From Opitutales bacterium (GTDB taxonomy: Bacteria; Verrucomicrobiota; Verrucomicrobiia; Opitutales; UBA2987): 64,000 bases of DNA. Shown here piece by piece: positions 934 to 62,800 of the stretch. The stretch spans positions 416,001 to 480,000 of the forward strand of contig CBDDEL010000015.1 of NCBI GenBank assembly GCA_965226885.1, given 5' to 3'. The position numbers and the translations under genes were made by a program. The notes below the pieces were generated by a model that saw nothing but the letters and a program-made list of their open reading frames with translations, was not told where the DNA came from and did not search any database. The first letter of the stretch is position 1; each line of letters begins with the position of its first letter.

Positions 934-1802
934 TTACTCCAGCTCCCAGCGACTCGGGTTGATGCCCGGAGCCTCCCGCGGCATGTCCGGCGGTTTATTG
1001 CCGGCTTCCGGTCGCCAGATGCGGCCGCTGCGATCCCCCATGAGCTCGCGCACCGCCTTCGGCAACCCGGCCACCTCCTGCGCGTCCCATGGCTGCACCC
1101 GGTCGGCCGGACCGGACCAGGTCGGCCGGTAGGAAAGCTGCAGAGACTCCCTCGCGTAAGTGCCCACATTTGGGTAATTGCCGTGAAACAGGTAGTGGTT
1201 GAACACTACGGCCGAACCCGCTTTGCAGGTCACCATGACCTCTTCCGGGTGCTCCTCGTAGCGCAAGTATGGATTGGCTTCGTTGTGGAAGCTCAAATGT
1301 GTCCGCGGTATGACGCGAAAGGGGGATATACCTCAGGAGTGAGATCGTCAAGATAGTAGAGGACACGGACCAATTTTGGGCAAGTATACTCGGCCGGAAA
1401 GATTTGGGAGCCCCACGGCTGGCCATCGCAGTGCAGACTGATGCCGGGGTGCCCGGGTTCGGACCGCCCGTAGTCGTATGACATCGGGACCACCTCGCCG
1501 CACAACGTCTTGAGGAATCGGATCATCGGCGGAAAGGCGATCAACTCGGTTATCGGCCCCCCCTCAAACTGCACGTTCGCGCGACCCCGCTGATGCACGC
1601 TTTAATCCACGTGCGTCGTCTCAAAGGTCGCTGTCTGCGCTTTGAGACGTCTTATGTGTCCGGCGTCGAGAAGGTTGGGAATCAGGACGTATCCCTCCAC
1701 CTCCAAGTGCCGAATTCGGTCTCCAAGGGTAAACCGGCTCCAATCGCGATCATCGATACGCGGTTTGCCGTCGGGTGTATTGGTCGCAGAGAAGTCTGAC
1801 AT
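934..1802 (-). pseudogene. Phytanoyl-CoA dioxygenase (PhyH)-like Fe(II)/2OG dioxygenase, disrupted
   Basis: Three pieces join into one protein (EGYVLIPNLL, HCD, YLDDLT, FNHYLFHG). In-frame TAA at 1602-1604 and a 2-bp duplication at about 1326-1329. Confidence 0.8.
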
Positions 1803-1968
1803 GCCTCGATTTACCAATTAGCCGTAGTCCTACATTACAAACTGATGTGAATTACCATAACCGTGGGCAGAGAGTCAATCACGAACACTTTCGCCCCCTC
1901 GCGCGCGATCAACACGGCAGTAGCCTTGCCATTCCCTCACCCGGGCCCCGAGTTGCCCAGCCACTTCT

Positions 1969-2658
1969 CTACTTTTGGGGTTCAATTCCCAACCCTTCCA
2001 AATAGCTCTGGCCCGAATCCCATTTCTCGAAGATAGCTTCTTCTTCAGCCAGGATCTCATGTGCCGCTTCGATCACGGAAGGCGCATCTTCGGCGCGGCA
2101 GAATACTATGCCATCTTCGTCCGCTATAACCAAGTCACCCGGTGTGGCTACGACACCGCCAATGCAAACCTCAACTTCCGCTTCCGCGCCAATGTAACCT
2201 TCGGGGAATCTAGGTATGACGAAGGATTCCGTCGAGATCAGCCGGTGAAACATTTGCATTCCCTGATTTTTAACATCCGCGATATCGCGAATGGTACCGT
2301 CAATGATTACTCCGCTGAGACCAGCGTGGACAAACGACCGGCAGGCGCCACCACCATAGGGTGAACGCAGTCCCAGCCGCGATTCCGTTACGAGAACAGG
2401 TGATGCCAGTTCTTTCGCCCGCTCGAATGCTTTGGCAAGAACATAAGCGAAAGATGGCTGTTCTGTTGGATAATAATCCAGTAAAACTGTCACATCTGTC
2501 CCCGCCACGCGCTTATCGGGGATGAGTGGGCGCAGAGCGGGGTCGACAATGCGGCGCGTCAAACCCAGTTTCTGCATACCGTCAGCGATAAACGGTGACC
2601 CCAGTTCAAGAAAATTTCTAATGCTGTCTTCATTATTCATATCGATTTCTTCGGTCAT
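1969..2658 (-). CDS. RraA/HMG-aldolase family protein
   Basis: GVIIDGTIRD and GGVVATPGDLVIADEDGIV motifs. Confidence 0.85.
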   Translation of the reverse strand: MTEEIDMNNEDSIRNFLELGSPFIADGMQKLGLTRRIVDPALRPLIPDKRVAGTDVTVLLDYYPTEQPSFAYVLAKAFERAKELASPVLVTESRLGLRSPYGGGACRSFVHAGLSGVIIDGTIRDIADVKNQGMQMFHRLISTESFVIPRFPEGYIGAEAEVEVCIGGVVATPGDLVIADEDGIVFCRAEDAPSVIEAAHEILAEEEAIFEKWDSGQSYLEGLGIEPQK

Positions 2659-5093: not shown

Positions 5094-7955
5094 CTACCGG
5101 GTAGAGGTGTATTGAATCGAGACGGATCGGAGGACAGGAGAGCTGGCCGAGCCGGGGCTGATCAAGCTCGCTTTGTACTGGATCCAGCGAACCTCCGCCT
5201 CTCGTCTCGCCAAGCTGGCGCCTGACTCGGTGTAGAAGCTTTGCGGGCCGTCGGGCCCCCCCCAGGGGGCCGACTCCAGGGCCTCGCGTGTGCCGGCCGA
5301 TCGAACCTGAAACTCGAGGCCCGTCTCAAAGGGAGTGTCTCCCTCCCAGCTGATGGCCTCCAAGCGAACCTTGGACCCCGTATCAAAGGACGGGGAGACG
5401 TAGTCGTAGCGGTCTCCTCGATCATAGACGTGGCCGTTATCGGATGTCAAGTAATGGGGACCTAACCCCGGCAGAAGAGTTCGCCGATCGACAGAGAAAC
5501 CGTCGTCGCTTCCCCAGTAAAGAAAGGAATCGTTGCGGTGGTTGCCCTCCTTGGAGTGACAGGCGAAGAGAATGTCGGCGCGATCATCTCCGTCGAAGTC
5601 GTTGACATAAATGCCGGAGGCCGAATTTGTGGGCAGCAGGGTCATTCGGGAAGCCTCGAAGCCCGCGGCGCTGTTCCAGTAGATCGTGGAAGGATGGCTC
5701 CGGGTATAGCCGGCGTGGTAGCTGGAAAGGACCACGTCCAACATACCGTTGCCGTTCAGATCCGCTACCGCTACGTCGGCATTTCCCACCGAGGGAAGGA
5801 TCTGCCGGCGGGATGCGTCATACCCATCGGGCCCGCCCCAGTAGATGAAGGTGTCACCCTCGGGGGAACCCCCGAAAGACTGGGGCTTGCCGGGAGCGGG
5901 ATTGGCGTCGTAGAGATTAGGCACGATCAGGTCCAGAAACCCGTCTGCATTGAGGTCTGCAACCTCGACGGAAGCGGAGACTCTCGACGGCAGAGCGGTC
6001 TTGCGGTCATTGTCGAAACCCAAGGGACTGTTCCAGAATATGACGAGCTGGTCGATGGTGGTGCTGAAGAAGATGTCCAGCCAGCCGTCGCGATTCAGGT
6101 CTCCGGTGGAGTGGACGCGGATGCTGCCAATCTCGAATTCGAATCGGTTGTTTCCCGTGAATCCCGATGGGCCGCCCCAGTAGAGGCTGGTAGATTCACT
6201 GCCGGGCTCCCACTGGCTGAGAGAAATGTCCAGGTAACCGTCCCGGTTGTAGTCGGCCACCCGGGAGGAGAACCCTCCGAGGTCCGAGAGTAGGTGCCGG
6301 TTGCCGGACGAATATCCATCAGGTCCTCCCCAATAGATACCCGAACCGCTGCTTTCTTCGTCCTCGATCGATGCAAAGACGAGGTCCACGTAACCGTCCT
6401 GATCGATGTCGGCACTGTCGTAGAAGCTGCCGCCAGTGGGCAGGTCCTGGCGGCGCCCGGAATCGAACTTCCCAGCCTCGTCGCCCCAGTAGATGTAGGA
6501 GGGAGTGGGTCGGTTGAAGTTCGATGCGTTGACGAAGACCAGATCCGTGAGTCCATCTCCATTCAAGTCTCCCGTCTGCACACCCGTCGCTTCCGAGGTG
6601 GGCAGTTCCGTCCGCCGGTCGGTACTGAAACCGTCCTCTCCTCCCCAGTAGAGGTAGGCTCGGGGCTGCTTGTAGAGGCCGGCGTTTGTCTGGGCGAAGA
6701 CCAGGTCCATGTGGCCGTCCCCATCCAGATCCACGATGGTGCAGCGGGTCGGGTTCCGCGTCGGCAAGGCCGTTCGTTTGTTGGGGCGGTAGCCTTCAGC
6801 CGTGCCCCAGTAGATGTAGGATGTGTTGCTCGACTTGTTGGCAAATAGCAAATCGGGCCTGCCGTCCCGATTCAAATCGGACGCTGCCACATCGGAAGCT
6901 CCCACCGTAGGCAGCGATGTCCGTGACTCGACCGAGTAACCTTCCCTGGATCCCCAGTACACGTAGGAGTTTACGGCCACCGTGTCGAGGATGTTGTACA
7001 TACCCATTTCCCGCGTTTTTAAACGATAGGAATTTGCCAGGACGATTTCAGGAAAGCCGTCCGCGTTCAGATCGGCCACGGCCACGGCCGAGGTTCTCTC
7101 CCCCGGCAGGTGGGTGCTGGGGCGGTGAGCGTAGTCTCCGTTGCCCCCGCCCCAATAGAGGAGCGCTCCGCCTTCTGCGTCGGTGTTCCCCTCGTTGGCA
7201 AAAACCAGGTCCAAATGGCCGTCTCCATCCAAGTCGGCCACGGCCACATCTCGACCATTGACGGTCCTGAGCGCCAGGCGACGGTCGGGCGAGTATCCTT
7301 GCGCAGAGCCCCAATAGACGAAGGACTGGTTATCGCGATCTACCGACACGTGATAACCGAGGCCACTGTTGGCAAACACAATGTCCAGATGGCCGTCCTC
7401 GTTTAGATCCTCCACCGCCACGGCTCGCGCTCCCCTGGTGGGAAGACCGCTCCGGGTGGAGGCGTCCAGGCCATCTGCACTTCCCCAATAGATGTAGGAT
7501 TCCAGGTCCGTCCTGGTCCCATTGAAGTTATTGGCGACGATCAGATCGGGATAACCGTCGGCATTCAGATCGGCCACGGCTCCGTCGCTCCCGCCGTTCG
7601 TAGGCAACTGCATGCGGCGCTGGGACGAGAACCTGTCGCCACCCCAGTAAATAAACAGGTCTTCCTTCGCGATGGGATCATGATCGTTAGGCAACACGAT
7701 ATCGATGCTGCCGTCGCCATTCAAGTCCCTGCGATTGATAAGCATCACCTCCCCGCCTGTCGTAACGAAGGTGTTGACGCCCCCGTCGCTAAAGCTACCG
7801 TCAACCAGGTCCAGAAAAGTTGAGGTGGTCCACAATTTCGCGTCGGCCCCCACTACCGGGACTGAGGAGACCAGGAATGCCAGCAGGGCCAGTCCCGCCG
7901 TTCCTGCAAGTTTGATGGAGATCCTATGATACTTGATGGAGATTCTATGATACAT
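5094..7955 (-). CDS. Secreted FG-GAP/VCBS-like YWG-repeat protein, paralog 2 (953 aa)
   Basis: Hydrophobic signal peptide, 14 DxNxDG...YW(G/N) repeats and a conserved C-terminal domain. In-frame 21-bp duplication (YHRISIK x2) at the N-terminus. Confidence 0.9.
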   Translation of the reverse strand: MYHRISIKYHRISIKLAGTAGLALLAFLVSSVPVVGADAKLWTTSTFLDLVDGSFSDGGVNTFVTTGGEVMLINRRDLNGDGSIDIVLPNDHDPIAKEDLFIYWGGDRFSSQRRMQLPTNGGSDGAVADLNADGYPDLIVANNFNGTRTDLESYIYWGSADGLDASTRSGLPTRGARAVAVEDLNEDGHLDIVFANSGLGYHVSVDRDNQSFVYWGSAQGYSPDRRLALRTVNGRDVAVADLDGDGHLDLVFANEGNTDAEGGALLYWGGGNGDYAHRPSTHLPGERTSAVAVADLNADGFPEIVLANSYRLKTREMGMYNILDTVAVNSYVYWGSREGYSVESRTSLPTVGASDVAASDLNRDGRPDLLFANKSSNTSYIYWGTAEGYRPNKRTALPTRNPTRCTIVDLDGDGHMDLVFAQTNAGLYKQPRAYLYWGGEDGFSTDRRTELPTSEATGVQTGDLNGDGLTDLVFVNASNFNRPTPSYIYWGDEAGKFDSGRRQDLPTGGSFYDSADIDQDGYVDLVFASIEDEESSGSGIYWGGPDGYSSGNRHLLSDLGGFSSRVADYNRDGYLDISLSQWEPGSESTSLYWGGPSGFTGNNRFEFEIGSIRVHSTGDLNRDGWLDIFFSTTIDQLVIFWNSPLGFDNDRKTALPSRVSASVEVADLNADGFLDLIVPNLYDANPAPGKPQSFGGSPEGDTFIYWGGPDGYDASRRQILPSVGNADVAVADLNGNGMLDVVLSSYHAGYTRSHPSTIYWNSAAGFEASRMTLLPTNSASGIYVNDFDGDDRADILFACHSKEGNHRNDSFLYWGSDDGFSVDRRTLLPGLGPHYLTSDNGHVYDRGDRYDYVSPSFDTGSKVRLEAISWEGDTPFETGLEFQVRSAGTREALESAPWGGPDGPQSFYTESGASLARREAEVRWIQYKASLISPGSASSPVLRSVSIQYTSTR

Positions 7956-8083
7956 GGTGCTACTCCCTCAATAGAGGTTTATGGGAAATTCAATTCCGGG
8001 AACGGATAACTTTATTCAGAAAACAAGAAGCATCAGGAATCAAGGCCAAGCACTTGTCAAACTTTATCAACCATTCTATTTTA

Positions 8084-9936
8084 GAGGCTGTCCCAATAAG
8101 AGGCTGTCCCAATAATATAAAGATTTTATAGTCAACTGGATGACGTTGATAAAAAGAGCCGGAAAGAGCAAGTTTTTGCTCGATCCGGCCAAAAAAGGGT
8201 TCTATAATTGAGTTAGCGAAAATCAATATAGCCCTTTCTATGCCCTTTCTATGAAAAATATAGCCATCCAATGCCTCCTGCGTCCAGCTTTAACTGTGGT
8301 CGACCGGTGCCTCGATTACGATAACTTCCGCGCCACCATTGATCGAATCGATCGGCTGCTGATCGACTCGGAGGTGGAATCGCAGGCCATTGAGCTGGCC
8401 TTGGAGGGGTGGCCGCCAATGGGTCTAAAGGCCCGGCGGCAGCGGGCCAGTTTTGCCATCAAGGCACTGCGCATGGATACGCTGGGCCGTCTGCTCGGAG
8501 GGATTTCGTTTCGGCATTTGTCGCGGGCTCTGGGCAGCAGCGATCTGTTGGCCGACTTTTGCCGTGTCCGGCAGATCGATGGCATCAGGGGCATCTCCAA
8601 AAGCACCCTGGAGCGGGCCTCGAAGTTTTTCAGCGAAGAGCAGTTGAGGGCCTTGCACCGGACCTTGACTGAGGTGGTGGGCGATGCCCTTCTGGCCCGG
8701 CAGGTGGGATTGGACAAGCCGATTGACCCCACCATTTGCCTGATCGACGGCACCTGTTTGGAGGCTAACATTCATTGGCCGACGGACTGGGTATTACTCA
8801 AGGATGTAGCCGGCACGTTGCTCAAAGCGATCCGGCTGATCCGCGAGAAGGCCGGTGTGCGCCATCGCATGCCGATCGAACCGGAGCCCTTGGCTCGGCA
8901 GATGAATCGGCTGTGCATACAGATGACCCACAGCCGGCGGCGAAAGGACAGCGCGCGGCAGCGCAAGGGTATCTTGAGGCAGATGAAAAAGCTGCTCAAA
9001 CGGATCGGTGAGCATGCCCGCAGTCACCGGGAATTATTGCAAGCCTGCTGGGAGCAAAGCGATTACAGCGAAAAACAGGTCCAACAGATCCTCGCCCGGA
9101 TGGAGCGCATGAGCGAGCAAATCCCGGTGGTCATCAAACAGGCGCACGAGCGGATCATTGGCGGCCGCCAGGTGAAAAACGCAGAGAAAGTCTTGAGTGT
9201 TTACGAACTCGATGGGCAGGTGATTGTGCGAGGTAAAGCGGGCCAAGAGGTCGAGTTCGGCAACACCCTGTTTTTGGGAGAAAGCGTTGAAGGGTACCTG
9301 CTGGACTGGAAACTCTACGGCAGCCGAACTCCAAGCGAAAATGAACAAATGCAAGAGAGTTTGCAAAGACAGAACCGCTTCAACCTGGAAGAACCCATAG
9401 CGGCCATGTGCGCGGACCGGGGATTTGCCTCCCAGCGGGCCCGCCGGCAGTTAGCCCAGGAGGGAATCTACGACGCGCTCTGTCCACGCGATCCGAAGCA
9501 GTTGAAAAAACGGATGGAGGAACCACTGTTCAGACAATTGCAAAAGCGCCGGGCCAGCACCGAAGGGCGGATCGGGGGGATCGGGGTATTGAAGAATCGC
9601 TGGCAGGCCGGGCGGTTGCGCAGCAAAGGCTTTGCCAACCGCTCGATCAGCGTAGCCTGGTCGGTACTCTCGCACAACCTATGGAAAGTAGCCAAGATGC
9701 TGGCCCAGCAAGACGAACTAAAAACCAAAGCGGCGGCCTAGAGAGCGGAAAAGCAAGGACAATACTTTTTCACAGCCTTACTGTCGGCTCATACAAAGAA
9801 AACCAGGCAACCGGACCCCAAAACCAGTATCCTAACGTCATAGGAGAGCAAAGTTGATACTCTCCCAAATGCAAATACCTCTAAAATGAGCGCCTATCAA
9901 AAGCCCTCGCAAAAATCACCCTTTTGGGACAGCCTC
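8084..9936 (+). mobile_element. IS5/ISNCY-like IS, copy 1 (transposase 8251-9741)
   Basis: IRs GAGGCTGTCCCAA/TTGGGACAGCCTC with flanking repeat TATTTTA. DDE transposase motifs IDGT..PTD, GK..VEFG, ADRGF, TEGRIG. Family assignment is tentative. Confidence 0.92.
8251..9741 (+). CDS. DDE transposase (IS5/ISNCY-like)
   Basis: 496-aa ORF, near-identical to the copies at 25190-26675 and 36025-37500. Carries an in-frame 9-bp duplication. Confidence 0.9.
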   Translation: MKNIAIQCLLRPALTVVDRCLDYDNFRATIDRIDRLLIDSEVESQAIELALEGWPPMGLKARRQRASFAIKALRMDTLGRLLGGISFRHLSRALGSSDLLADFCRVRQIDGIRGISKSTLERASKFFSEEQLRALHRTLTEVVGDALLARQVGLDKPIDPTICLIDGTCLEANIHWPTDWVLLKDVAGTLLKAIRLIREKAGVRHRMPIEPEPLARQMNRLCIQMTHSRRRKDSARQRKGILRQMKKLLKRIGEHARSHRELLQACWEQSDYSEKQVQQILARMERMSEQIPVVIKQAHERIIGGRQVKNAEKVLSVYELDGQVIVRGKAGQEVEFGNTLFLGESVEGYLLDWKLYGSRTPSENEQMQESLQRQNRFNLEEPIAAMCADRGFASQRARRQLAQEGIYDALCPRDPKQLKKRMEEPLFRQLQKRRASTEGRIGGIGVLKNRWQAGRLRSKGFANRSISVAWSVLSHNLWKVAKMLAQQDELKTKAAA

Positions 9937-9975
9937 TATTTTAACCGGCGACCAGGACAAATTTTTCTAACTCTG

Positions 9976-41156: not shown

Positions 41157-41230
41157 TCCTCCTTTCTAGGATAAGCGTACCGGTTTTAAAGCGCCCTCTT
41201 TACCGTACCGGTTTTTCCCCGGCGTTTACA

Positions 41231-43396: not shown

Positions 43397-43665
43397 TTAA
43401 AGAGAGATCCCTTGAGAATTACACCAAATCGGTTGGCAATCGTTCCATGGCCAGTCAAATGGATTTCGGAGGAACCGGTAATGATGAAAAAAGTGCATTT
43501 CGGGATAAAATAAAAAAGGCCATCGACGATTCACTGGTCATAATCCAGGAAGATCACAAAGCGGGATTGGTAGTGTATTAAGTAGGAATGGTGGCTAATT
43601 CTTGATTATATTGATGAATGAAAAGTCTCAGACAGGTTTCATGCATACTCTTAAGCTTGGAAAAG

Positions 43666-47491: not shown

Positions 47492-48432
47492 TTAGACTAA
47501 AGCTTTGAATTCACCCAATTTTTGAAGGTCATCGACGACGGCGTAGCTGTCCTCTTCGCCGAGGGATTTTAGGGGGGGCAAGACTGTTTTTCCGCACAAG
47601 CCTAGCGAATCCAAACCCGTCTTCAATGCGGCTATGGTTTGCGGTAAATTTCTTCCTTTTCTTAAAACTTCGATTACCTGGTTCATTCGGTTTTGTGCCG
47701 CCGCCGCCTCTTCCGTATTACCGCAAATGGCGCTTTCATAGAGTTGGCTTGCGCCTTCCGGATCAAAATTTCCGGAACTTGGAACAAGGCCGTCGGAACC
47801 TTCGTTGAGGACTCTTAAGGAAAGAGATGTGCAACCTACCAATATGGCGAAGTTCTCTTTTTTCCCAAGACGGTTGTTGAGTTCACTCAAACGTTCGGCA
47901 TTGAACTCGGAGTCTTTAATGCCTATTATATTGGGGTGCTCATGCAATTTTTGCAATACATCCAACGGCACTGACAAATTTGTCGTTTGCGGAATATTAT
48001 AAATTAAAAGAGGACTTTCCACCCGGTTGGCCAGCTCTTCGTAGTAGTCGTAAAAAACATCTTCATTGACGGGGTAGTAAAAGGGCGGATGAGCCACCAC
48101 GGCATCGACTCCACAATCATGGGAATGTTGCGCCAACTCCAGCGAATGCTCCAGGCAATTGTCCGCAATACCGGTATAAAAAAGTCCCTTTTCGCCAACT
48201 TCTTTTGCCGCCAGGCTGATCCCAGGCTGATCAATTGCTTGCGCATTGAAAATGGCATGGAAAGGGCTTCCCCGGTGGTCCCAAGGACAAAGATGCCATG
48301 ACATCCACCGCCCAGGATGTGTTCGATCAAACGGCAGACGGCTTTCTCATCGAGTTCTCTATTAGCGGTAAAAGGCGTTACCATGGGCACGATTACGCCG
48401 CTGTGTTTTTTCTTCTTTTCAGTTAGCATCAT
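47492..48432 (-). pseudogene. Dihydrodipicolinate synthase/N-acetylneuraminate lyase family aldolase, frameshifted
   Basis: PMVTPF, GTTGE, IYNIP and GIKDS motifs. 11-bp duplication CCAGGCTGATC at 48211-48232. Confidence 0.9.
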
Positions 48433-48752
48433 AAATTATATTAAATTAAGTTTAGTAGTTATCAATAAGCCGCTCTATAAATAGCGCAAGCGGCCTCTTC
48501 CGTACGGAAACCTTCTTCCGCGCACTGGATTACGCAACCATGCCAAACACAAGACATCCAGAATTGAGAAAATTGATGATTCGCATTAGCAATAATATTT
48601 AAACTTGGCAGTTGAAAAAATTTGTCATCCACATTGAAAGATGAAATACAATGGTGCAACTTGTTAAGTTAATTCATTATACGAAAATTGGAAATAAAAA
48701 GTATTAGCATTTCTCATTTTAACCCTGTTATTGTAATCGATTGGAGAAAAGA

Positions 48753-50255: not shown

Positions 50256-50308
50256 CAACACGGTCCGGCACGACCTGGTATTGCGGGGGATCTGTTGCAT
50301 GAATGCAT

Positions 50309-50350
50309 AAAAAAAACCAGCCCTTCACGGGATTACCGTAAAGGGCTGGT
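50309..50350 (-). terminator. Intrinsic terminator downstream of the TonB receptor gene
   Basis: 15-bp stem ACCAGCCCTTTACGG / CCGTGAAGGGCTGGT (one G-U pair), 5-nt loop, then a U-tract on the minus strand. Confidence 0.8.
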
Positions 50351-50433
50351 CAAATTGAAATCGCGTGCGTCGCGCCGCCCCCAATTCAGTTAGAAAGAAA
50401 CCACCAAGGGGCGCGCGGCTTGGTTTTATTTAT

Positions 50434-53400: not shown

Positions 53401-53814
53401 CTCGCGGTAGCCCTCTACCGTAAATCCTTCCAGCTCAACGATTGAATCTCCAATCGATATACGCGGAGTAATGGTCCCGGACTCCGGCACCTCAATCGAT
53501 TCGGTGACCGCCTCGTAACCGATAAACCGGACGATTATGGTGTGAGCCCCCGCGGGCACATTGGAGATGCGAAACTCGCCGCTGCGATCAGTCGTGGCGA
53601 TGCGCCCCAAATCGACGATGCGGACGCTAGCCCCCGGCACATAGGAATTGGTGTTGGAGTCCACAACCGTTCCGTTGATATCGCCGGCCCAGACGTTTGA
53701 AGGGAGGGCCATAAGGCAAATTAGGGAAAGAAAACAAAAAAAGGCTGAAAATGAGAAGCCTTTTGGCAGTGGGTGGGTAACAGGATTAGTCTCTGACTGG
53801 TGTGTATTGTTCAT
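50434..53814 (-). CDS. TonB-dependent receptor with N-terminal carboxypeptidase-regulatory-like domain
   Basis: Signal peptide, GTVVD...PGASV domain, plug motifs DALVRLPGV / SIRG / EVIKA, and terminal beta-strand FGLRWNY. Confidence 0.93.
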   Translation of the reverse strand: MNNTHQSETNPVTHPLPKGFSFSAFFCFLSLICLMALPSNVWAGDINGTVVDSNTNSYVPGASVRIVDLGRIATTDRSGEFRISNVPAGAHTIIVRFIGYEAVTESIEVPESGTITPRISIGDSIVELEGFTVEGYREGRALALQQKKTAPSIRDILSADSVGQIPDRNVADALVRLPGVSLDMSNGEGRFISIRGIAPSLNNVTINGASVANPGVDGRAGRAMPLDVIGSSQISQLEVIKAITPDMDAQGLGGTIEIKTASAFDREEGYFNGSIEGGYADQPEDYPYRAEVTWAKRMGAERKLGVALSATYEWRPYENEAMDMRWDKDDFLTDFDNDGVFEGEVEDYAYINDLEVIPEFGNRQRIGLNTKIEFKPNEDTEFYLNGIWNRFIEWEEGIEITLEGDRLDYEEDQAYLTEGGSRDDRLSPFLTSPTQLWFPSVDALQQRIGIEKREQSLINITVGGKKRWGNLTVTTELTYSNAKEKVIYEGQIQFRGRLAEGEMVMRASDAPLMDFNGTPLPFFLDPEGDGLRYDEGNQRLAEIDGPTGGDPIPVLFDFSGPLPNVTIPRVAATDGSRLAHRRNRIDDSLVEENTYIPKIDLQWDFDNFFGSGNSGFVKAGFKYFNRNRLIDDNSFRPVFCTETVDPQTCGDRENVFRKGEAIRPSAADFPNSTVPARNVLGLYDSGIELQFRTPWQESMGGTNPVAGSTLFPFVVNEVESSENNIEDDYDLDEKILSFYGMVSVDIGEKLTLVGGVRIENTDVDITANQWTRFDDFESEIGSPCDTFNSEAESSFCLETSQSSFSYDDIFPNVQALFRISDNLQLRAAFTTATGRPNFEDAAPITRMEITLDEPRDGDNPAELDELRARIRNPKLQPYYAYNYDISLEYYTDWGAAFSFAAFHKEIDNPIFSFESRDRDFADRPDNTVADATQIIQERCACIVNTSFLNPADIVNELRMEGWDNAEHGRVTGIELSAALPLSFLPQPLDGFGIDANVTFIQSEFDIIERRDLADQTPFFQQPSKIANAALWYQKGRFQGRVAFRYQSESFDEVDDPGDDFGDRYDAPREQWDAQASYKINDHWTAYFNVTNLTDQQDIRWFGNTARRINTIEQFGSVWRFGLRWNY

Positions 53815-53910
53815 GGCTCTAGCAGTTGATTGAGGTTTACTGGTTTGGAGGGAAAGGCAGGGTTGGGAGGGGGAATCTCTCAAGAATTCAATTTTTACCG
53901 GAAAGGCTCA

Positions 53911-53948
53911 GTTTTTGATTGAACCTTACGTTTTTGATTGAACCTTAC
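53911..53948. repeat. Perfect 19-bp tandem duplication in the divergent TonB/GntR intergenic region
   Basis: GTTTTTGATTGAACCTTAC x2. Confidence 0.95.
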
Positions 53949-54047
53949 AATTGTCAAGCCTATGGTTTGATTTTGTCAATAAAAAATAGCGTCGAAAATA
54001 AGATTTGACTCACTCTTAATGTTTAAACCGGCCAGGTTGCCCCTGTT

Positions 54048-55133
54048 TTGATCGTGAACTATGTTCCCAAATACCAGATAATCTACGACGACTTGCTGCG
54101 GAAGGTCGATAAAATGACCCCCGGGGAGCGTCTACCCAGCGTGCGCCAGTTAAGGGCCGACTACAACGTCAGCCAATCCACCATCGAACGCAGCCTCGAT
54201 AAAATGGAACGCAAAGGGCTGGTCCGGCGCCGGCGCGGCAGCGGTGTATATGTCGAAGGATGGGACTCCAACAACAACGTGATATGCGTTTTTGCCGATA
54301 TCGAAATATCCGACCCGACCAACAGCCTGTTCTTGAGCGGCGTGCGCAAGGTAGCCGAACAGAAAGGCTTTCAAGTGGCCGACTTTGGACCCAAGAACTT
54401 TTTTAGAATCCGCAGAGACATCTTACCCACCCTGACCGGTCAAAAATTTGCCGGCATCATCACCCGGCACTCGGGCATGGACACCTTTCTACTCGATAAC
54501 GACCGCCATTGGATGGAACGATTGAAAGCCGTAAGACTGCCCCTGGTCACCTGCCGGCCCACCCCCGCGGTGCAAGTCGACTCAGTCACCCCCGATTACT
54601 TCGCCTCCTTTCAACAAGTGGGAGAACATTTGCGCAAGCAGACCGCAGGGCCCATCTACTTCCTCGGAAACACCACCGTACCCTCCTTTGCCCGCTTACA
54701 AGGACTCGAAGTAGGATTAGGGGGAAAAGACCGGCTCATAGTAGATATAACCCATGGCAACAACCGGGATTTTCTGGCCAAACTGAACCAATTCAAAAAA
54801 CGCAAAATCAGCGGGCACCTGATCATCGGCGTGCCCCTGGAAGATTCCGGATTTTACGATGTCTTTCAAGGAACCACCTGGGGCCGCGACCCCAGCAAGC
54901 AATTTGTCATGCTCCTGCACGACAACCAAAGTATACCCCAAGGCGTAACCGCCAACACAATCGTAAAACCCAGCTTCGGCATGGGAATGATGGCAGCCCG
55001 CCTAATGATCCGCAGAATCCACGGCTACCGAGGAGAAATCATCCACGAAACAGTCAAACACAAGGTCATTTTGAATGCAAATCATCCCAGGAGCTCCGGC
55101 AAGATTTTGATTCCGGCACCCACACCGGTTTGA
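54048..55133 (+). CDS. GntR-family regulator with LacI/AraR-like sensor domain
   Basis: PKYQ.I...L...PGERLPSVRQL...YNVSQSTI...G.VRRRRGSGVYV winged HTH, followed by a periplasmic-binding-protein-like domain. Confidence 0.85.
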   Translation: MIVNYVPKYQIIYDDLLRKVDKMTPGERLPSVRQLRADYNVSQSTIERSLDKMERKGLVRRRRGSGVYVEGWDSNNNVICVFADIEISDPTNSLFLSGVRKVAEQKGFQVADFGPKNFFRIRRDILPTLTGQKFAGIITRHSGMDTFLLDNDRHWMERLKAVRLPLVTCRPTPAVQVDSVTPDYFASFQQVGEHLRKQTAGPIYFLGNTTVPSFARLQGLEVGLGGKDRLIVDITHGNNRDFLAKLNQFKKRKISGHLIIGVPLEDSGFYDVFQGTTWGRDPSKQFVMLLHDNQSIPQGVTANTIVKPSFGMGMMAARLMIRRIHGYRGEIIHETVKHKVILNANHPRSSGKILIPAPTPV

Positions 55134-55154
55134 ATTAAGACTCCCGCTTCCGAC

Positions 55155-56633
55155 TTAAATTTCCTTTGTCCTTCTTTGGAAATTGGGCGCCCCACCCCAA
55201 TCTGTGGCCAGGACGGTGGCGTCAAAACTTTTTTTCATAAGAGTAAGCTTCAATTCCTGGTGCGCCGGGTCGTCCCATAAATTGTTGAATTCGCCCGCAT
55301 CCTCCTCTAGATCGTACAATTCTCCCAAATCGTAACCGTGGTAAACGACAAGCTTGTAACGTTCGGTGCGTAACATCGTCCCGTAGCCCGGGTTGCCTTC
55401 CCGGTTGTTATTGGATTCTGCGTCGTAGCTTTCGCAACGGGCGAATTCCCTGAATCGATGCGGATCGGCCTGACCGAACAGGATGGGGCCCAGGGAGCGC
55501 CCCTGCATGTGCTCAGGGGTAGGTAATCCAGCTAGATCGAGCAGCGTTGGGGCGATATCGATCAACTCCACCAGACCTGAGGCTTTGGTTCCCGATTTAA
55601 AGCGCTTCGGCCAACTGAAAACCAGAGGCACACGGACCCCTCCTTCATAAAAACGGCAGCCCTTATAGATCAATCCATGGTCTCCCAGCATTTCTCCATG
55701 ATCGGAGGTAAAAATTACCACCGTATTTTCAAGCTGACCTGTATCCACCAGAATACGCATGATTTCACCAATTTGATCATCTATTTGGGTAATCAAAGCG
55801 TAATAGTGAGCTTTTAAAGCGCCGGCGTCCTTGCGACCGCCCAGATAATTTTCGGTCTGGCCCTTTCGAGTGCCGATTTCCAATTCATGAGGAGGTTTGG
55901 CTTTACGTTGAAACGGAATCAAGTCCAGTTTTTCCTGTTCTTGAAGGTCCGAAGGGCGATACAAAGGCGGCGGCATGGCGTCGGGATCGTAACGGCCCAT
56001 ATATTCTCGGGCCGGATTGAAGGGAGGGTGGGGATAAAAGAAATTCACACTGGCGAACCAAGGACCTTGGTGTTTCCTCTCTATGAAATCCCTCGTCTTT
56101 TCACCGCACCAGGTGGTATGGTGGTATTTAGCCGGAAAACCGTCGGGGTCACACAACAATGCGCTTAAATCTCCGCCTTTGGCCTCCACCCAATCCGCAT
56201 AATCATGACCTTGGGTAATCGGGTAATGGGGCTGATGCCAGTGCGGGGCATGGCTGTAATGCCAGTAGGAATAACCGTCATCCGTTCTCTTTTCCACGCC
56301 ATTGCCGACCTTGTCGAGGTGTAATTTTCCGATTAAACCGCAATCATATCCTCCATCCTGGAAAAGTTTGGATACTATGGGCACCGCGCTGGGAAACCCC
56401 TCCACTCCATTGCCATTTATATGCAGTGTGCCGGGATAAAGACTGGTCATGAAACTGGCCCTGCTGGGCTGGCAAATCGGGTTTTGACAATAGGTCCGCG
56501 TAAAGGCCACTCCCTGCTCTACCAAACGATCCAAATTCGGCGTGATGATATTTGGATTACCCAAGGCGCCGATCGTGTCATAACGCTGCTGGTCGGTGCA
56601 AATCCACAAGATATTAGGCTGCTCTTCAGGCAT
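55155..56633 (-). CDS. Formylglycine-dependent sulfatase
   Basis: PNILWICTDQ, CQPSRAS (CxPxR), GKLH, PHPP and FTSDHG motifs. Confidence 0.93.
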   Translation of the reverse strand: MPEEQPNILWICTDQQRYDTIGALGNPNIITPNLDRLVEQGVAFTRTYCQNPICQPSRASFMTSLYPGTLHINGNGVEGFPSAVPIVSKLFQDGGYDCGLIGKLHLDKVGNGVEKRTDDGYSYWHYSHAPHWHQPHYPITQGHDYADWVEAKGGDLSALLCDPDGFPAKYHHTTWCGEKTRDFIERKHQGPWFASVNFFYPHPPFNPAREYMGRYDPDAMPPPLYRPSDLQEQEKLDLIPFQRKAKPPHELEIGTRKGQTENYLGGRKDAGALKAHYYALITQIDDQIGEIMRILVDTGQLENTVVIFTSDHGEMLGDHGLIYKGCRFYEGGVRVPLVFSWPKRFKSGTKASGLVELIDIAPTLLDLAGLPTPEHMQGRSLGPILFGQADPHRFREFARCESYDAESNNNREGNPGYGTMLRTERYKLVVYHGYDLGELYDLEEDAGEFNNLWDDPAHQELKLTLMKKSFDATVLATDWGGAPNFQRRTKEI

Positions 56634-56844
56634 GGAATTACTAAAATTAAAGAATTTTCATAACACGTTGATTATGGACGATTAACCGCATACTTTATCG
56701 TCACGGTGTAAATAGATTTTATCATCTTCGGTTCCGAGTCAATGGCAAGGAGTATTGCCACTCCCAAGAACATCGCTTGTGCTGGGCAGGGTAAATCGAT
56801 CTGCATCAGGAGCGTATCGTCGATAACACTACGCTTGACTAGTA

Positions 56845-57976
56845 ATACCAAATCGCAAAAGGATTGATAAAGATTAAAAAACAGCTATAAAGGCGGAATG
56901 AGAAGATATATGGGAACCGATGAAGACCGTGAACGTATCAAGAAATTGCTCAACAAAGAGGCTATCGGCTGGCGTAAAGAGCGTTTGGTGGCATTAAAAA
57001 TGGGCTTCCAGCCGCACCACAGCATTGATGAAATTGGAGCCATCGTGGGCCGAGGCAAAGCGACGATCCAGCGTTGGTTTGACAAATATCGTGCTGCAGG
57101 GCTCGGGGCGGTGCTTACACGCGCCTACAAAGGCGGGATCAAAAGCCGTTGCGACAAAGAGGTGGAGGCCTTCTTGCTCAATGGTTTGAAGGTCGCGCGC
57201 TGGAACACAGCCGTTCAGGCGGGGCAAGAGCTGGAGCGACATTTCGGGCGCTCCTTCGCCTACAAGACGGTGTGGCGATGGCTAAAAAAATGCGCCGGGG
57301 TGCTTCGAGTCCCTCGCCCCGTGCATGAGAAACGGGACTCGGCAAAAGCGGAAGCGTTCAAGCGAGACTTTTTTAAGATCCTCCAGGAGCTTTCCCTCAC
57401 CCGAGGCAATCGGGTTCGGGTGTGGTTTGCCGATGAAAGCCGTTTTGGTTTGCTTCCGGTGTACCGCCGGTGCTGGACGCAAAGAGGGCTTCGGCCGCAC
57501 AAAAAATATCAGACAAGATACCAGTGGAGCTACTGTTACGGAGCCCTCGACGTGGTCAACGGCGAGATGGTATGCATCCAAACCCCTAGCACGAATCTAC
57601 AGTGGACGGAGGCTTTCCTCCAACAGATCAAAAAGCAATATCCTGAGGAGGAACATGTGGTTGTATGGGACGGGGCAGGCTTCCATCCGCACGACTCGGA
57701 GCACCCCAACGTCCCCCCGGGCATACATATCGTGAATTTGCCGCCGTATAGTCCTGAACTCAACCCGATTGAAAGACTTTGGGATATGATACAGGATCAA
57801 ACGGCCAACAAACTGTGGCCGAGCATTGAGCGACTCGAAGAAGTCGTCGCAACCCATCTCAAAGACTGGTGGGAGGACACTGAAAAAGTCCTCTCTTTAG
57901 TTGGCGGAGGCTGGCAGCACATTCAAGCAAACGCTTCTGCCAAATAACTTATTATCATACCTAATGAGATTTGGTA
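56845..57976 (+). mobile_element. IS630-family element (transposase 56898-57947)
   Basis: IRs TACCAAATC/GATTTGGTA, TA target duplication; FADESRFG, WDGAGFH and LPPYSPELNPIE motifs. Confidence 0.93.
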
Positions 57977-59519
57977 TAAGTTTCTCCAGCAGCGCTGTAT
58001 CGATGTATTTTTTTACCGTTCGCCGATCCAGTTTCAATTGCCTTGCGGTCTCTTCGTAATTGCGGGTTTGGGCGTATATTTTGGTCGCGTGTCGGCGAAG
58101 AAGCTGATCAGCGGTCAAGTTGGTATTTTCAGGGTTTAGGGCAACTTCCCCACTCTCATTTCTCGCTTTGTAATCCAGGTTTTGAGGTTGGTAATCCTTG
58201 TGTATCAGTATATTGCGGACACATTGCTCAAGCTCGCGAAAGTTGCCCGGCCAGTGATACCCAGGGGGCAGTTCTTTATCAATCCATGTAATTACTTCCT
58301 CGGTTAATTGATCCGCTTCGTCCACCCCTGCAATTTTTTCCGCTATAAATCGAACCAGGTAATGATATTCATTGGGATCTTCGGCGAGAATTTCTCTCAA
58401 ACCCGAAGTTCTAATGTTGTCGGCGCAAAGCCGGTAGTAAAAATCCTCTCGAAAAGTCCCGTTCCTGATTTCCGTGACTAAATTACGGTTGGTGGCGGCA
58501 AGAATTTTCCCCTGGAAACACCTGGGTTCTGTGTCGCCAAGCCGCTGAAAACTTCGAGTTTGTAGGGTGCGGAGCAGTTTTACCTGAATTTTAGAATCTA
58601 CGTCTCCGATTTCATCAAGGAAGACCGTTCCATAGGGGCCGCATTTTTCGAAGTAGCCTTCGCGGTCCTGCATGGCGCCCGTAAAGGAGCCTTTACTATG
58701 GCCGAACAATTCTGACTCGATCAGGGTTGGCGAAAGCGCTGTCAGGTTCAAGGGGTAATAAGCGTTGATGAAGTCCTCCTCGAACCTTTGCTTGCTTTCG
58801 TTAAATGGGATAAATCGAGAGAGTCCAATGCCTTGGGCGACCAGTTCTTTACCCGAACCCGAAGGACCTGTAATTAATGTAATGATATCCCCCATACGAT
58901 TGGAAAGGGACCGGAAATAACGAGCGATGTCATGAGTGAAGGTCGATTGCCAGACCCGTGCTCGCAGATCTCTGGTGGCTGCAGAGGTACCGATAATATA
59001 GTGGAATATGTGATAAAAAGCTCGTCTAACCTGAAAGCCGTAAGCGAAATATTGGCTATACGAAAATGTCGCCGGAGGATAATCCCCAGTAGGTCGCAGA
59101 AAACTATCTAATTCCTGCTTAAAACGCTCGTAAAATTCAATTCGCCCGCTGGCATGTCCCTTCCGGTATGCACGTTCTATGAACTGAAGAAATTCCTTTC
59201 GGAAACGATAATAGATATAAAATAAAGCGAAATCCTGATATAGTTGGTGCTGCCGTGCCGGAGCAGACCGCGCCTTCCGAAAATTTTCCCGGCACCGCAT
59301 CGCCGTCTCCTCCAGCTTGCGGAGAAGAAGAGGGACATTTGGATCTTTCGGGTATTCCGTGGGACCCAGATTCCAAGGATCCTGGGTCGGGCTGTAAGCC
59401 GAACCAAGAGCCAGTTTTTCCAACTCAATCCTCTTTTCCAAAAAAGGATTGCAATAAAATAGCTGCGATACCGCTTCGACAAAAGGCAGGTCGTCCGGAG
59501 ATGTGATTACTTGCGACAT
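57897..59519 (-). CDS. Sigma54-dependent transcriptional activator (last codons replaced by IS630 read-through)
   Basis: GPSGSGKE, ESELFGH.KGSFTGA, FLDEIG, WPGNFREL and a C-terminal HTH. Start taken at MSQVIT. Confidence 0.9.
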   Translation of the reverse strand: MSQVITSPDDLPFVEAVSQLFYCNPFLEKRIELEKLALGSAYSPTQDPWNLGPTEYPKDPNVPLLLRKLEETAMRCRENFRKARSAPARQHQLYQDFALFYIYYRFRKEFLQFIERAYRKGHASGRIEFYERFKQELDSFLRPTGDYPPATFSYSQYFAYGFQVRRAFYHIFHYIIGTSAATRDLRARVWQSTFTHDIARYFRSLSNRMGDIITLITGPSGSGKELVAQGIGLSRFIPFNESKQRFEEDFINAYYPLNLTALSPTLIESELFGHSKGSFTGAMQDREGYFEKCGPYGTVFLDEIGDVDSKIQVKLLRTLQTRSFQRLGDTEPRCFQGKILAATNRNLVTEIRNGTFREDFYYRLCADNIRTSGLREILAEDPNEYHYLVRFIAEKIAGVDEADQLTEEVITWIDKELPPGYHWPGNFRELEQCVRNILIHKDYQPQNLDYKARNESGEVALNPENTNLTADQLLRRHATKIYAQTRNYEETARQLKLDRRTVKKYIDTALLEKLIPNLIRYDNKLFGRSVCLNVLPASAN

Positions 59520-59805
59520 AGGGAGAGACAATTTATCTCTGTGCTGGCCTACTGCATGACTCCGGCAAAAAGGAGGTAATTTTCCCGGTGATTGGAAAGA
59601 CTGAAGCAATGCCCTGGAAGATTTCCCACATGGCTCTTTAGAAATGTTTAAATTAGTTACCTTCTGATAAAACGATTTCATGGTAATTAATTTAAACTCT
59701 TTGGCAATTATATCTCGTTTCCGTCTGGAATCAGCTCCCAGTTAAGAAATGAGCACTGGAAAAGGAAAGACAGGCGCCTGCCGTTATAGTCGCAAAAAAT
59801 GGCAT

Positions 59806-62800
59806 TCACTTCAATAAACCGGGCAAGGCCAGGGTTAAGATGAGGACATAAGTTATGAGGAGAACCCCGGCCAGAAGCACCAATAGCATTGGGATGACTG
59901 ACCGGTAAACATAAGGGAGCGATTTCTTGAAGCGCATGGCCGATAAAAACAGATTCATGCCCACGGGTGGTGTCAGATAACCAAGCTCGAGATTGGCCAG
60001 AAAAATGATTCCGAGGTGTATCGGGTCGACCCCAAAGGCCAGCCCCATGGGGATAATCAAAGGCACGACCACTATGATAGCCGAATAGCCGAGTATATGT
60101 CCATGAGGCAGCCCACCAGCAGGAGAAAGAGGTTCAGGACGAGCAAAAACACCCAGCGGGACTCGATTGTCTGGCTCACCCATTCAACCGCGCGATCTGG
60201 AAATTGCTCAGTGATCAGGTAATTATTGAAGCCCATGGCCACCCCAAGAATAAGAAGCACCCCGCCCACCAACAGGCCGCACTCGGTCATTACGCGCGGG
60301 ATGTCGCCAAATAATTTAAGATCCCGGTAAATAAAAGTTTCCACCATAAAGGCATAGAATGCGGTAACGGCAGCCGCCTCCACTGGGGTGGCGAATCCAC
60401 CGAATAGCGCCGTGAGGGCAACGACTGGCAAAAGCAACTCCCATTTTGCCGCCCAAATCGCTCGATTTGCGACTTTCAAATCGAATGGAGGAAGCTCCTC
60501 CTTATTGCTTATTGAGGGAGCCCGGAGCACTCCCCAACAGGCCAGCAGACCGACAAGCAGGATTCCCGGGCCGATTCCTCCCAGAAATATCTCTTTAATG
60601 GTAATGCTGGCCCCGATTGAGGTGGCCACGATGGCGTAGAGGATGAGGGGAAGGCAGGGTGGAAAGAGCAACCCTAGGGATCCGGCTGCGGTGAGGAGCC
60701 CAAGAGAGTCCTTTTCGCTATATCGAGCGGAAATAAGAACCGGCATGAGGAGTCCCCCCAGGGCCAGAATGGTTACCCCTGAAGCGCCCGTAAAGGTGGT
60801 GAAAAACGCGCAGACCAGGACGGTGGCGATGGCCGGACCCCCTTTGATTCTCCCTACCAGGGCTTGGAATACACTGATGAGGCGTTGCGAGGCGCCTCCC
60901 TCGGCCAGGAAATAACCTGCCAGGGTGAATAACGGAATGGCCGCCAGAGAAGGATTCACAACCATGCGGTAATGATCGATGGCGATTGAGGCTATGGGGT
61001 ATTGCCGTCCCCAAAATAAAATCAGGGCGGCTCCGCCCAAGGCTGAAAAAATAGGGGCGCCCAGGACAACGGCGATGATCAAGAGCCCCAAGGCCGGTGC
61101 AGTTAGCCCGGATATTTCATGAAGGGTAAAGTTTGGCTCGTTATTGCTATTGGAGATGGATTTCTTTGTATTTTGAGCAGATCGTCTTGATTTTTAGGTG
61201 TTTTTCAGGGTGTAGAGACACTGCCCCCTTTCCCCCATTGGTTCGGTAGTGCCGGGGGCAGCACCAATGCACCCTTTAGGTTGGCACCAATCGGCGGGCC
61301 GCATGGTTGAAAAGACTGGCCCAAGGATAACTCTCACTTAGGTGAAAGTGAATCGTTCGGGTGTTGCGCACGATGACCGCTCCGATCTTGATTAATTTGA
61401 GCCGCAGGGTGTGGCATTGGGCCCGCGCCCACTTCGTCCCTTTTAAGGCTAACCGGCGCATGGCTTCCATCAAGGTGTAGGCCAGCGCCGACAAGAGCAA
61501 TCGCCACTGATTGGCCCACCATTGATGGGCGCTGGTGCGCTCGCTGAACAATTGCATCTGTTCCTTGATTCGGTTCTCCATTTCACCGCGGCCACAGTAT
61601 ACCTTGTCGTAAAGCTCCTGGGGATCGCCCGGCAGGTTCGTCACCACGAAGCGCGGGTTGGACCCCTGTGCGGTGTGTTCGGCTTTATGGATGACCAACC
61701 GCAGCCATCGCCACGAATCGGCAGCATAGACGAAGTCCTGGAATAACCGTTGTTTTTTACCCCTTAGTTCGAACCATTCTTTGGCCTGCTTTTGCAACTG
61801 CTGGGCGTCTTGCTGCAAGCGTGCATTGCGAGCCATCCCCACGATGTAACTAACTTCGTTGCGGTCGCACCAAGAGAGTATCCGGGCTCGACAAAATCCA
61901 CTGTCGGCGCGCCAAATAATCCGCGTACGGGGCCAGCTTTGGCGAATCCGTTTAACCAGCAATTTGAGGATGGCCCCGGCATGCTTGCTGGCATCGATCT
62001 TGCTCGGCCGCAGGTAGGCCACCAGCAGCTGATCACCGCAAAAAACATATAGCGGCAGAAAACAGTAATGATCATAATAACCGTGGAAAAAACGTCCCTC
62101 CTGGAGCCCGTGCACCGGATTGTCGGTGGCGTCAAAGTCCAGGATGATCTCTTCGGGTTCCTCGGCAAAGGAGCCCATGAACTGTTCGACCAACAGCTCG
62201 TTTACCGCAAAGGCCGCCCGCCGATCCTGCCCGTTTTCAAAACGACACAAAGTCGGCGCGCTGGCCAACGTTTCAATGCGCCCCGTTACCGTTTGCAACA
62301 ATGGATCGTGGCGCAGGGTATCAAAGTCGTTTAAATCCTCATAGCCCGCCACCAGCCCGTAAACGCGCTGCCGCAGCATCCCCAATACCTCATGGCGTAC
62401 TTTGCCCTTCTGCCGTTTGTCCACTAACTGTCGGGCCGCTCGTTCGGTCAAGCCCAACTGCCGATCCACTTCCCGGATCAAAAGCAGTCCGGCATCCGAA
62501 GTAACCTCTCCGCCCTTGAAATCAACCCGCACACGGCGGCCTTTTACCCTTGTCAACTGTAGCTTTAATTGTTTACCTTTTGTCATCGCTGATATTGCTT
62601 TAATTATTGATCTATCCTGCTGTATATCAGCAGTTAAGCATATCAACGATACTTTTTTTACGAAATATCCGGGTTAGCGCTTCCGTGGCAATCGGCGGAT
62701 ATAGCCCGATTGCCACCCATAGGCCGCTCAGGCACAAGGTGAGGAAACGCCCTTTCCAGGCGTCTGCACTATGGCGAAACAGCCGCCAGGCTATTGCCGT

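Follow-up and report, generated by a model that had tools for sequence, protein, structure and literature searches.

Flap-processing mutators such as yeast rad27 and Escherichia coli polA give rise to duplications of 5-100 bp on one nascent strand, bounded by short direct repeats. Bacterial non-homologous end joining (NHEJ), in which Ku and LigD act on filled-in 5' overhangs, and paired nicks in plants both yield another product, the microhomology-free tandem duplication. The closest described system is the E. coli topA R168C mutant, in which repeat-independent tandem duplications of 2-19 bp arise at hotspots; in the sections of that study drawn on here, its authors treat the de novo origin of tandem repeats from unique sequence as an open question (Bachar et al., Nucleic Acids Res 2020, PMC6954433). 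Here we describe short tandem duplications in a 64,000-nucleotide stretch of the transposon-rich genome of an uncultured marine Opitutales bacterium (the window; G000:C15:416001-480000) and throughout the assembly to which it belongs (G000; 5.48 Mb, 17 contigs, 96% complete).

The duplications resemble those of topA R168C in that they are head-to-tail, short (2-19 bp there, mostly 4-45 bp here), independent of repeats and concentrated at hotspots. That strain is a laboratory point mutant of a canonical Topo I, unlike the natural lineage studied here, whose sole type IA enzyme is TopB-type; the link to a type IA topoisomerase is genetic in topA R168C and inferential here. Unlike the products of flap-processing mutators, the duplications are not bounded by direct repeats. 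They also differ from those of NHEJ and paired nicks, since neither Ku nor a LigD-type ligase was found in G000 and their signature is single-stranded rather than paired across the strands. Their boundaries resemble the selectivity of type IA cleavage in that a single base is preferred at a set distance 5' of the break, on the strand bearing the 3'-OH and in an A/T-rich context prone to become single-stranded.

Tandem duplications in the window, the genome and natural strains

All 15 adjacent duplications of the original prediction are present at the coordinates given, 14 of them exact and the one at 7912-7953 with a single mismatch, and Tandem Repeats Finder and our own scan for adjacent copies yielded three more that its list lacked (629-646, 9 bp; 47381-47404, 12 bp; 56112-56127, 8 bp; Table 1). 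The 2-bp cases at 1326 and 3131 carry no weight, because about 1 in 16 positions match in this way by chance (own arithmetic). Against 100 shuffles, units of at least 8 bp numbered 13 in the window compared with a mean of 1.02 (maximum 4), and exact units of at least 10 bp numbered 8 compared with 0.07 (maximum 1). Zero junction microhomology had been assigned to 10 of the 13 duplications of at least 4 bp. Our count is 9, with 1 bp in two, 3 bp in one and the duplication at 7912 unscorable.

Full-length copies of six insertion sequence (IS) families were aligned (A 115, B 211, C 176, D 45, E 67 and G 47; 661 in total); IS-F, with 5 of its 388 matches full-length under the reference boundaries used, was left out. 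The earlier reconciliation of copy lengths agrees with the consensus alignments (IS-A, +11 and +9, +4, and +6/-12; IS-B, +15 and -4; IS-C, +13). Duplications inside IS had also been called private to one copy, which is correct inside the window but not genome-wide, where six of the seven scorable ones recur. The 11-bp duplication was found in 2 copies, the 9-bp in 4, the 6-bp in 5, the 4-bp in 2 and the 15-bp in 2, and the 8-bp duplication GGCGGCCT was also present in 2 full-length IS-B copies elsewhere in the genome. Among the seven, only the 13-bp IS-C duplication was unique to one copy; the 16-bp duplication at an IS terminus lies outside the alignment and was not scored. Nine groups of IS copies with duplications in common were subjected to a diagnostic-substitution test. 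Three were informative (the AAAT subfamily of 13, the GACTCACAG group of 3 and the TCTATGAAAA group of 4), and the other six held no diagnostic substitutions by which inheritance could be told from recurrence.

The whole of G000 carries 605 exact duplications with units of at least 10 bp (110/Mb), where about 7 are expected by chance (own arithmetic). Nearly all rows with units of at least 8 bp were two-copy (839 of 870 genome-wide), and density was alike outside repeats (115/Mb) and inside them (100/Mb). The fraction with zero microhomology was 0.55, 0.55, 0.58 and 0.54 for units of 10-12, 13-16, 17-24 and at least 25 bp, respectively, compared with 0.5625 for random ends, and one extra matching junction base occurred in 0.20-0.26 of duplications compared with 0.281 expected. 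The junctions are thus distributed genome-wide as expected for ends placed regardless of sequence, in keeping with the claim that microhomology plays no part. The direct repeats that mark junctions of slipped-strand or microhomology-mediated events were not found in this genome-wide comparison.

The IS copies were also used to compare gains with losses. Standing variation among the 661 copies amounted to 831 distinct substitutions, 141 insertions and 47 deletions relative to consensus, and distinct indels of 4-45 bp comprised 92 insertions and 20 deletions. The insertion bias is therefore real, and a non-deletional indel bias is shown in a bacterium. Among 95 insertions of at least 4 bp, 72 were exact tandem copies of adjacent sequence (40 of these with zero microhomology) and 5 were near-exact; the remaining 18 were mostly triplications or alignment splits of neighbouring duplications. 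Deletions followed another rule: microhomology of at least 3 bp was present in 16 of 25 deletions but in only 8 of 72 duplications (Fisher p = 7.5e-7). The 12-bp deletion between GGCC repeats in the window has 4 bp of microhomology, as is typical of deletions here, and was found in 3 copies. Both the IS consensus alignments and the congeneric orthologues identify the duplications as derived gains, as proposed.

Public sequencing runs from several studies, among them X4, X6, X7 and X8, contain the stretch 47300-56800. A contig from X4, which was built independently of the assembly although X4 may be the assembly's source sample and hence possibly not independent, spans 47300-48449 with 0 differences, and the duplications at 47381 and 48211 thus lie within it. 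Strains in X7 and X8 lack the 11 bp at 48211 (depth 6.07 of 6.07 and 6 of 9.9, respectively), and strains in X6 and X8 lack the 19 bp at 53911 (3.57 of 5.57 and 4.91 of 4.91); at the latter site there were no X4 contigs without the 19 bp (depth 9.2). Behind 48820, X8 carries a 15-bp insertion of its own that repeats 48821-48835 exactly in tandem. The 8 bp at 60077 are absent from the orthologues of all three congeners sampled (G001, G002 and G004). Both alleles thus occur in runs from other studies and X8 carries an extra duplication; therefore the duplications are real, derived and polymorphic in nature. An artefact, in which the source data would lack the duplications, is contradicted for three sites. 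The 21-bp duplication at 7912 has no outgroup check because orthologues of 7500-8080 were not found in G004 or G001, and neither has that at 20614, because the short repeat there matches many places in G004.

The claim that the duplications break genes was borne out as well. Removal of one copy restored at least 100 codons at 41 of 297 frameshifting duplications outside repeats, and in the window the duplication at 60077 splits a conserved gene into open reading frames (ORFs) at 59806-60183 and 60072-61091 on the minus strand. From these frameshift and codon-regain counts, the duplications are one real cause of gene loss, beside IS insertion, and hence a cause of pseudogene formation in genome degradation that is separate from it. 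They are rarer in long ORFs (43% in ORFs of at least 200 codons, compared with 82% of random unique sites), which indicates that selection shapes where they persist. Outside repeats, unit lengths that are multiples of three were not favoured (136 duplications, compared with 159 and 138 for lengths leaving a remainder of 1 and 2).

A strand-specific mark at both boundaries

Boundaries were compared in a set of 349 duplications (698 boundaries) with zero microhomology, units of at least 9 bp and unambiguous ends, identical events being counted once. The five bases outside the unit read C-W-W-W-N (CWWWN^). The outer C at -5 was present at 310 of the 698 boundaries (0.444 compared with a background of 0.262, p = 4e-25), and the outer CWWW at 162 (0.232 compared with 0.030). 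A C at -5 was likewise enriched inside the other end of the unit, on the same strand (259 of 698, 0.371, p = 3e-10). The enrichment was confined to offset 5, neighbouring offsets being depleted of C. Oriented by the C, the consensus of the anchored site is TTnCAATn^, and G is the rarest base at -4 (0.04).

The two marks follow a single-strand logic. Outer and inner marks co-occur on the same strand (odds ratios 1.8 and 2.2), and an outer motif on one strand excludes an outer motif on the other (odds ratio for C 0.35, p = 2.8e-6; for CWWW 0.29). At least one strand carries an outer C(-5) in 263 of the 349 duplications (chance 0.455), and both marks lie on one strand in 137 (chance about 0.13). 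The motif was robust separately outside repeats (279 duplications) and inside them (70). In the window, 12 duplications have zero microhomology or a mismatch; 11 of them carry an outer C(-5), and both strain-polymorphic duplications (48211 and 53911) read CAATT^ on the bottom strand. Among unambiguous events in IS copies it was present in 34 of 40. Hotspots have fixed boundaries: IS-B duplications of 20, 11, 10 and 6 bp and IS-A duplications of 7, 8 and 9 bp end at a common boundary, ^TATTG. A bias towards the transcribed or the other strand was not evident within IS, although the numbers are small (IS-A, 8 top and 5 bottom; IS-B, 5 and 4), and GC skew was too weak and scrambled for replication strands to be assigned on any of the 9 contigs longer than 100 kb. 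The boundary motif is new here. A literature search for it, or for other topoisomerase-linked duplications in bacteria, returned the E. coli topA study only.

In samples of 235-400 kb from each relative, high density was confined to G004, a congener of G000, which had 22 exact duplications of at least 10 bp in 392 kb (56/Mb) with the motif visible. The other two congeners had 4 in 342 kb, none with zero microhomology (G001), and 3 in 235 kb (G002). Members of the same family had 0 in 400 kb (G005), 1 in 400 kb (G008) and 3 in 300 kb (G006), and a genome of the same order (G019) had 2 in 400 kb. Microhomology-free duplications of at least 10 bp numbered 324 in 5.48 Mb in G000 and 13 in 0.39 Mb in G004; five other Opitutales genomes together had 1 in about 1.68 Mb, or 2 if an internally repetitive 14-mer of G002 is counted.

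The resident topoisomerase and competing explanations

A 3' end lying 5 nt after a C is joined to a 5' end lying 5 nt after a C of the same strand, which points to an enzyme that prefers certain sites on one strand and both cleaves and rejoins it. Cleavage by type IA topoisomerases is marked by a preferred base that lies a constant distance 5' of the break and only on the strand that is cut, and the boundaries display such a mark. G000 has a single PF01131 match (G000:C16:753075-755567; L002:1045-3534), with C-terminal Toprim_Crpt repeats. It passes the NCBIfam DNA topoisomerase III equivalog (1072, cut-off 1058) and fails topA_bact TIGR01051 (237, cut-off 456), and phmmer gave E-values of 5e-86 to E. 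coli Topo III and 4e-35 to Topo I. By these profile matches, the only type IA topoisomerase of the genome is TopB/Topo III-type; a type IB enzyme was not found in G000. Each of 20 Opitutales relatives has at most one PF01131 match, and bacterial topA (TIGR01051) did not exceed its cut-off in the 5 Opitutales genomes searched, which include one single-contig and one two-contig assembly.

Topo I and reverse gyrase are described in the cited passages as preferring C at -4 (PMC3467081, PMC7587558), one position from the offset of 5 seen here, and the pocket residues for C(-4) in Topo I differ in Topo III according to the portion of PMC7587558 used. In E. coli Topo III, R178 makes a base-specific contact to the -5 base, as stated in the part of PMC13476441 drawn on. 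The offset of the duplications is not the -4 of Topo I, and it may be that of the resident Topo III-type enzyme. The arginine matching EcTopo3 R178 is conserved in the G000 enzyme (own residue count on the alignment). The residue that we take to match EcTopo1 R168 is also an unchanged arginine in G000, so that a substitution of the R168C type was not found.

The topoisomerase of G004 is 92% identical to that of G000. At A18T (beside the TOPRIM glutamate), K772N and L800V, G000 and G004 differ from at least 16 of 18 other topoisomerases. These are the sole lineage-specific changes and are candidates only for what changed in this lineage. P217R/K and Q769E were dropped as causes because they are genus-wide and G001 and G002 lack the phenotype.

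On this evidence, the best reading, in which we place moderate confidence, is that topoisomerase cleavage, 3' extension and religation write head-to-tail duplications of 4-45 bp without a pre-existing repeat. We infer that the agent is a TopB-type enzyme and that extension precedes religation. The TopB/Topo III-type enzyme would cut single-stranded DNA 5 nt 3' of the C at TTnCAATn^ and stay on the new 5' end. A polymerase would then extend the freed 3'-OH and displace the enzyme-linked strand. The enzyme would rejoin its 5' end to the extended 3' end once a C at -5 again sits in its binding groove, and the resulting loop would become a tandem duplication at the next replication. Such a cycle would account for junctions free of microhomology, for the restriction of the marks to one strand and for a motif common to the two ends, and it would also produce fixed-boundary hotspots, a length spectrum that decays with size and a scarcity of matching deletions. 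More tentatively, the lineage may harbour a natural, long-lived "nick, extend, religate" mutator in which the Topo III-type enzyme itself writes tandem repeats at CWWWN^, a proposal that we hold to be possible rather than probable.

The several hundred natural events with a strand-specific boundary mark turn a vague link between topoisomerases and duplications into a testable model, and the motif offers a search target for other genomes and for mutation-accumulation data. If the proposal of a natural mutator is true, a type IA topoisomerase would here, for the first time, have left its footprint in the sequence on either side of a mutation. The proposal would also supply a concrete mechanism for the birth of tandem repeats from non-repetitive DNA, and a major way in which genes are lost as a bacterium becomes restricted to a host.

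Several observations weigh against the topoisomerase model. No outer C(-5) is present on either strand in 86 of the 349 unambiguous duplications. No family A polymerase domain (PF00476) that might extend the 3' end was found in the 5 genus genomes. The other Opitutales genomes searched have the same enzyme type and lack the phenotype, and the residues of the G000 enzyme matching R168 and R178 are unchanged; therefore something else must differ in the G000/G004 lineage. The low counts in G001 and G002 rest on fragmented assemblies, of which 235-342 kb were sampled. For E. coli Topo III, the part of PMC13476441 drawn on calls the sequence preference weak, with G, C and T tolerated and A disfavoured at -5, and it gives no preference for C there. 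Finally, the topA R168C study, in the sections used here, found no motif at its hotspots (PMC6954433), unlike the strand-specific C(-5) mark at both boundaries in G000.

Of the alternatives, an error of lagging-strand maturation survives best, although we consider it unlikely. The 5' end of an Okazaki fragment, at a primase start site, would be displaced as a flap and ligated in, in a lineage with a stand-alone exonuclease and without a Pol I polymerase domain. Such duplications are known in yeast rad27 and E. coli polA exonuclease mutants, and the event seen here is single-stranded with one sequence-defined end. PF00476 was found in 0 of 5 genus genomes, and the 5'-3' exonuclease is a stand-alone ORF of 317 aa. 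Duplications in rad27 and polA, however, have flanking direct repeats, whereas microhomology here is at chance level. A primase site leaves the C at -5 of the second, 3' boundary unexplained, and at -4, where the primer would start, G is less frequent than any other base (0.04). Moreover, the gene set is the same in G001, G002 and G019, which lack the phenotype.

Loss of a repair gene was also considered as a cause and rejected, as no gene examined separates G000 and G004 from their relatives. MutS, MutL, RecQ, RNase HII and the stand-alone 5'-3' exonuclease are present in both as in relatives, DNA_pol_A and RNase HI are missing in genomes with and without the phenotype, and xseA is broken in G000 but intact in G004. 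The xseA gene (exonuclease VII large subunit; G000:C11:253533-254476) is split into frames of 166 and 206 aa, with a stop near the N-terminus; 16 relatives, G004 among them, have it as an intact ORF of 418-483 aa. No duplication of at least 8 bp lies at the break in G000. In the wider order, a search of 16 further Opitutales gave no PF00476 match in 8, and full-length Pol I (941-957 aa) occurs only in genus g2. The 5'-3' exonuclease of the genus is a stand-alone ORF of about 300 aa, and RNase HI (PF00075) was found in 1 of 21 Opitutales genomes.

Next in order, and likewise unlikely, is another site-preferring nicking or strand-transfer enzyme acting at CWWWN^, such as an HUH nuclease, a recombinase, a nicking restriction enzyme or an IS-encoded protein. 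The motif and the strand logic require just a transesterase with a 5-nt offset. Repeats account for 31% of the genome, in which at least 7 IS families and numerous uncharacterised ORFs (the 214-aa ORF of IS-C, for example) are present, and high density in G000 and G004 alone would suit a gained mobile gene. No candidate enzyme was identified, however, and type IB topoisomerase was not found. The IS ends and target duplications disagree with the motif and the lengths, and the low information content of the motif, a C and A/T-rich bases, is more like that of a topoisomerase than that of a nuclease site.

The original prediction favoured staggered double-strand breaks, in which nicks on opposite strands are filled in and blunt-joined by NHEJ-like repair, or else IS excision or abortive transposase cuts. 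We now regard this as very improbable, and it is largely refuted. In principle such breaks do yield microhomology-free tandem duplications, and for plants the Discussion of PMC6954433 cites paired nicks with this outcome. Ku (PF02735) and ATP-dependent ligase (PF01068), however, had 0 matches in G000, and Ku was found in 0 of 21 Opitutales genomes. The motif lies on one strand only and the outer motifs of the two strands exclude each other rather than pairing. IS target duplications are 3-6 bp long (families A, B, C, D, E and G) compared with duplications of up to 45 bp, and density is the same inside and outside IS.

An equally slight chance attaches to background duplications surviving under relaxed selection in an IS-laden, degrading genome, or to an assembly or sequencing artefact: the deficit in long ORFs (43% compared with 82%) and the possible origin of the assembly from X4 speak for it, but the density gap to relatives (324 in 5.48 Mb compared with 1-2 in about 1.68 Mb) exceeds the difference in unconstrained DNA, drift alone is not expected to give a sharp strand-specific motif, and both alleles occur in independent runs of other studies. 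A polisher window artefact was rejected too; the spacings of neighbouring duplications (172 bp and 147 bp) are no multiple of the polisher window.

Window features and insertion sequences

Table 1. Duplications and other features of the window. Sequences in the last column are read on the strand named.
Feature	Position	Strand	Observation
9-bp tandem duplication GACATGACG	629-646		microhomology 1 bp; top-strand outer CATTT in one of two possible registers
21-bp duplication, one mismatch	7912-7953	+	outer top-strand 5-mer CAAGT (C at -5); at 5' end of the FG-GAP repeat gene 5094-7955 (minus strand)
16-bp duplication including left terminal inverted repeat of IS-A copy	8084-8115		microhomology 1 bp
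11-bp duplication GCCCTTTCTAT in IS-A hotspot region	8231-8252		identical event in 2 copies genome-wide
9-bp duplication in IS-A	9569-9586	-	bottom-strand anchor CAATA^; 9-bp form in 4 copies
10-bp duplication	20614-20633		3 bp microhomology
8-bp duplication GGCGGCCT, end of truncated IS-B copy	22734-22749	+	outer top-strand CACAC
13-bp duplication in IS-C	23228-23253	+	top-strand C at -5 of both ends (CCGAC, CAAAT)
4-bp duplication in IS-A	26454-26461	-	outer bottom-strand CAAGG; 2 copies genome-wide
6-bp duplication (TCTATG), IS-A hotspot	36022-36033	+	top-strand C at -5 of both ends (CCCTT, CTATG); 5 copies
15-bp duplication in IS-B	46372-46401	-	bottom-strand C at -5 of both ends (CTGCC, CATTG); 2 copies
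12-bp duplication CCCAAAAAAATA	47381-47404		without the motif
11-bp duplication, unique DNA, strain-polymorphic	48211-48232	-	bottom strand CAATT^ outside, CCTGG inside
15-bp stretch, single-copy here, tandem in X8 strain	48821-48835	-	bottom CAAAA^ outside, C at -5 inside (by eye)
19-bp duplication just upstream of TonB-dependent receptor gene, strain-polymorphic	53911-53948	-	outer bottom-strand CAATT
8-bp duplication GGTGGTAT within sulfatase ORF	56112-56127		near chance level at 8 bp
8-bp frameshifting duplication in conserved gene	60077-60092	+	outer top-strand CTATG
IS-A copy bearing three of the duplications	8099-9938	+	IS-A consensus 1821 bp
12-bp deletion GGCCATTGAGCT in IS-A copy 35883-37699	~36155-36166		coordinates estimated from consensus position
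IS elements of at least 7 families	8099-9938, 19168-20501, 21303-23715, 24993-26817, 27362-28164, 34426-47290, 56845-57978, 61104-62677
Three paralogous FG-GAP repeat protein genes, ~950 aa	5094-7955, 13565-16399, 28367-31240

At least 10 different duplications overlap in the IS-A hotspot region at 8231-8252, and variants of 7, 8 and 9 bp have one boundary in common with the duplication at 9569-9586. In the 16-bp duplication at 8084-8115, an A>T change relative to the IS consensus is present in both units alike. A difference was also seen at 50378-50434, where contigs of X4 and X8 have 11 other letters for 55 bp; either the strains vary here or the source sample contains a second allele.

The 31% of the genome given above counts repeats with three or more copies, and genome-wide matches per family number 233 for IS-A, 432 for IS-B, 254 for IS-C, 51 for IS-D, 94 for IS-E, 388 for IS-F and 49 for IS-G. 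IS-C is 802 bp long, with terminal inverted repeats and 4-bp target duplications, and its 214-aa ORF (window 27486-28130 and other copies) has no Pfam match. A diverged IS-A subfamily of thirteen copies is set apart by a 4-bp insertion and at least 12 substitutions found in no other copy. Its members are clustered in a 140-kb stretch (G000:C17:721661-862254) and on a 30-kb contig (C4), and the cluster region may be a separate replicon or recently acquired. About 70 bp adjoining the 10-bp duplication at 20614 (20619-20692) match at least 7 places in G004 with 91-95% identity, and this stretch may be a miniature mobile element or an IS end. The FG-GAP genes neighbour genes for an MlrC-like peptidase, an amidohydrolase, an enolase-superfamily protein, a sulfatase, PhoD and a TonB-dependent receptor.

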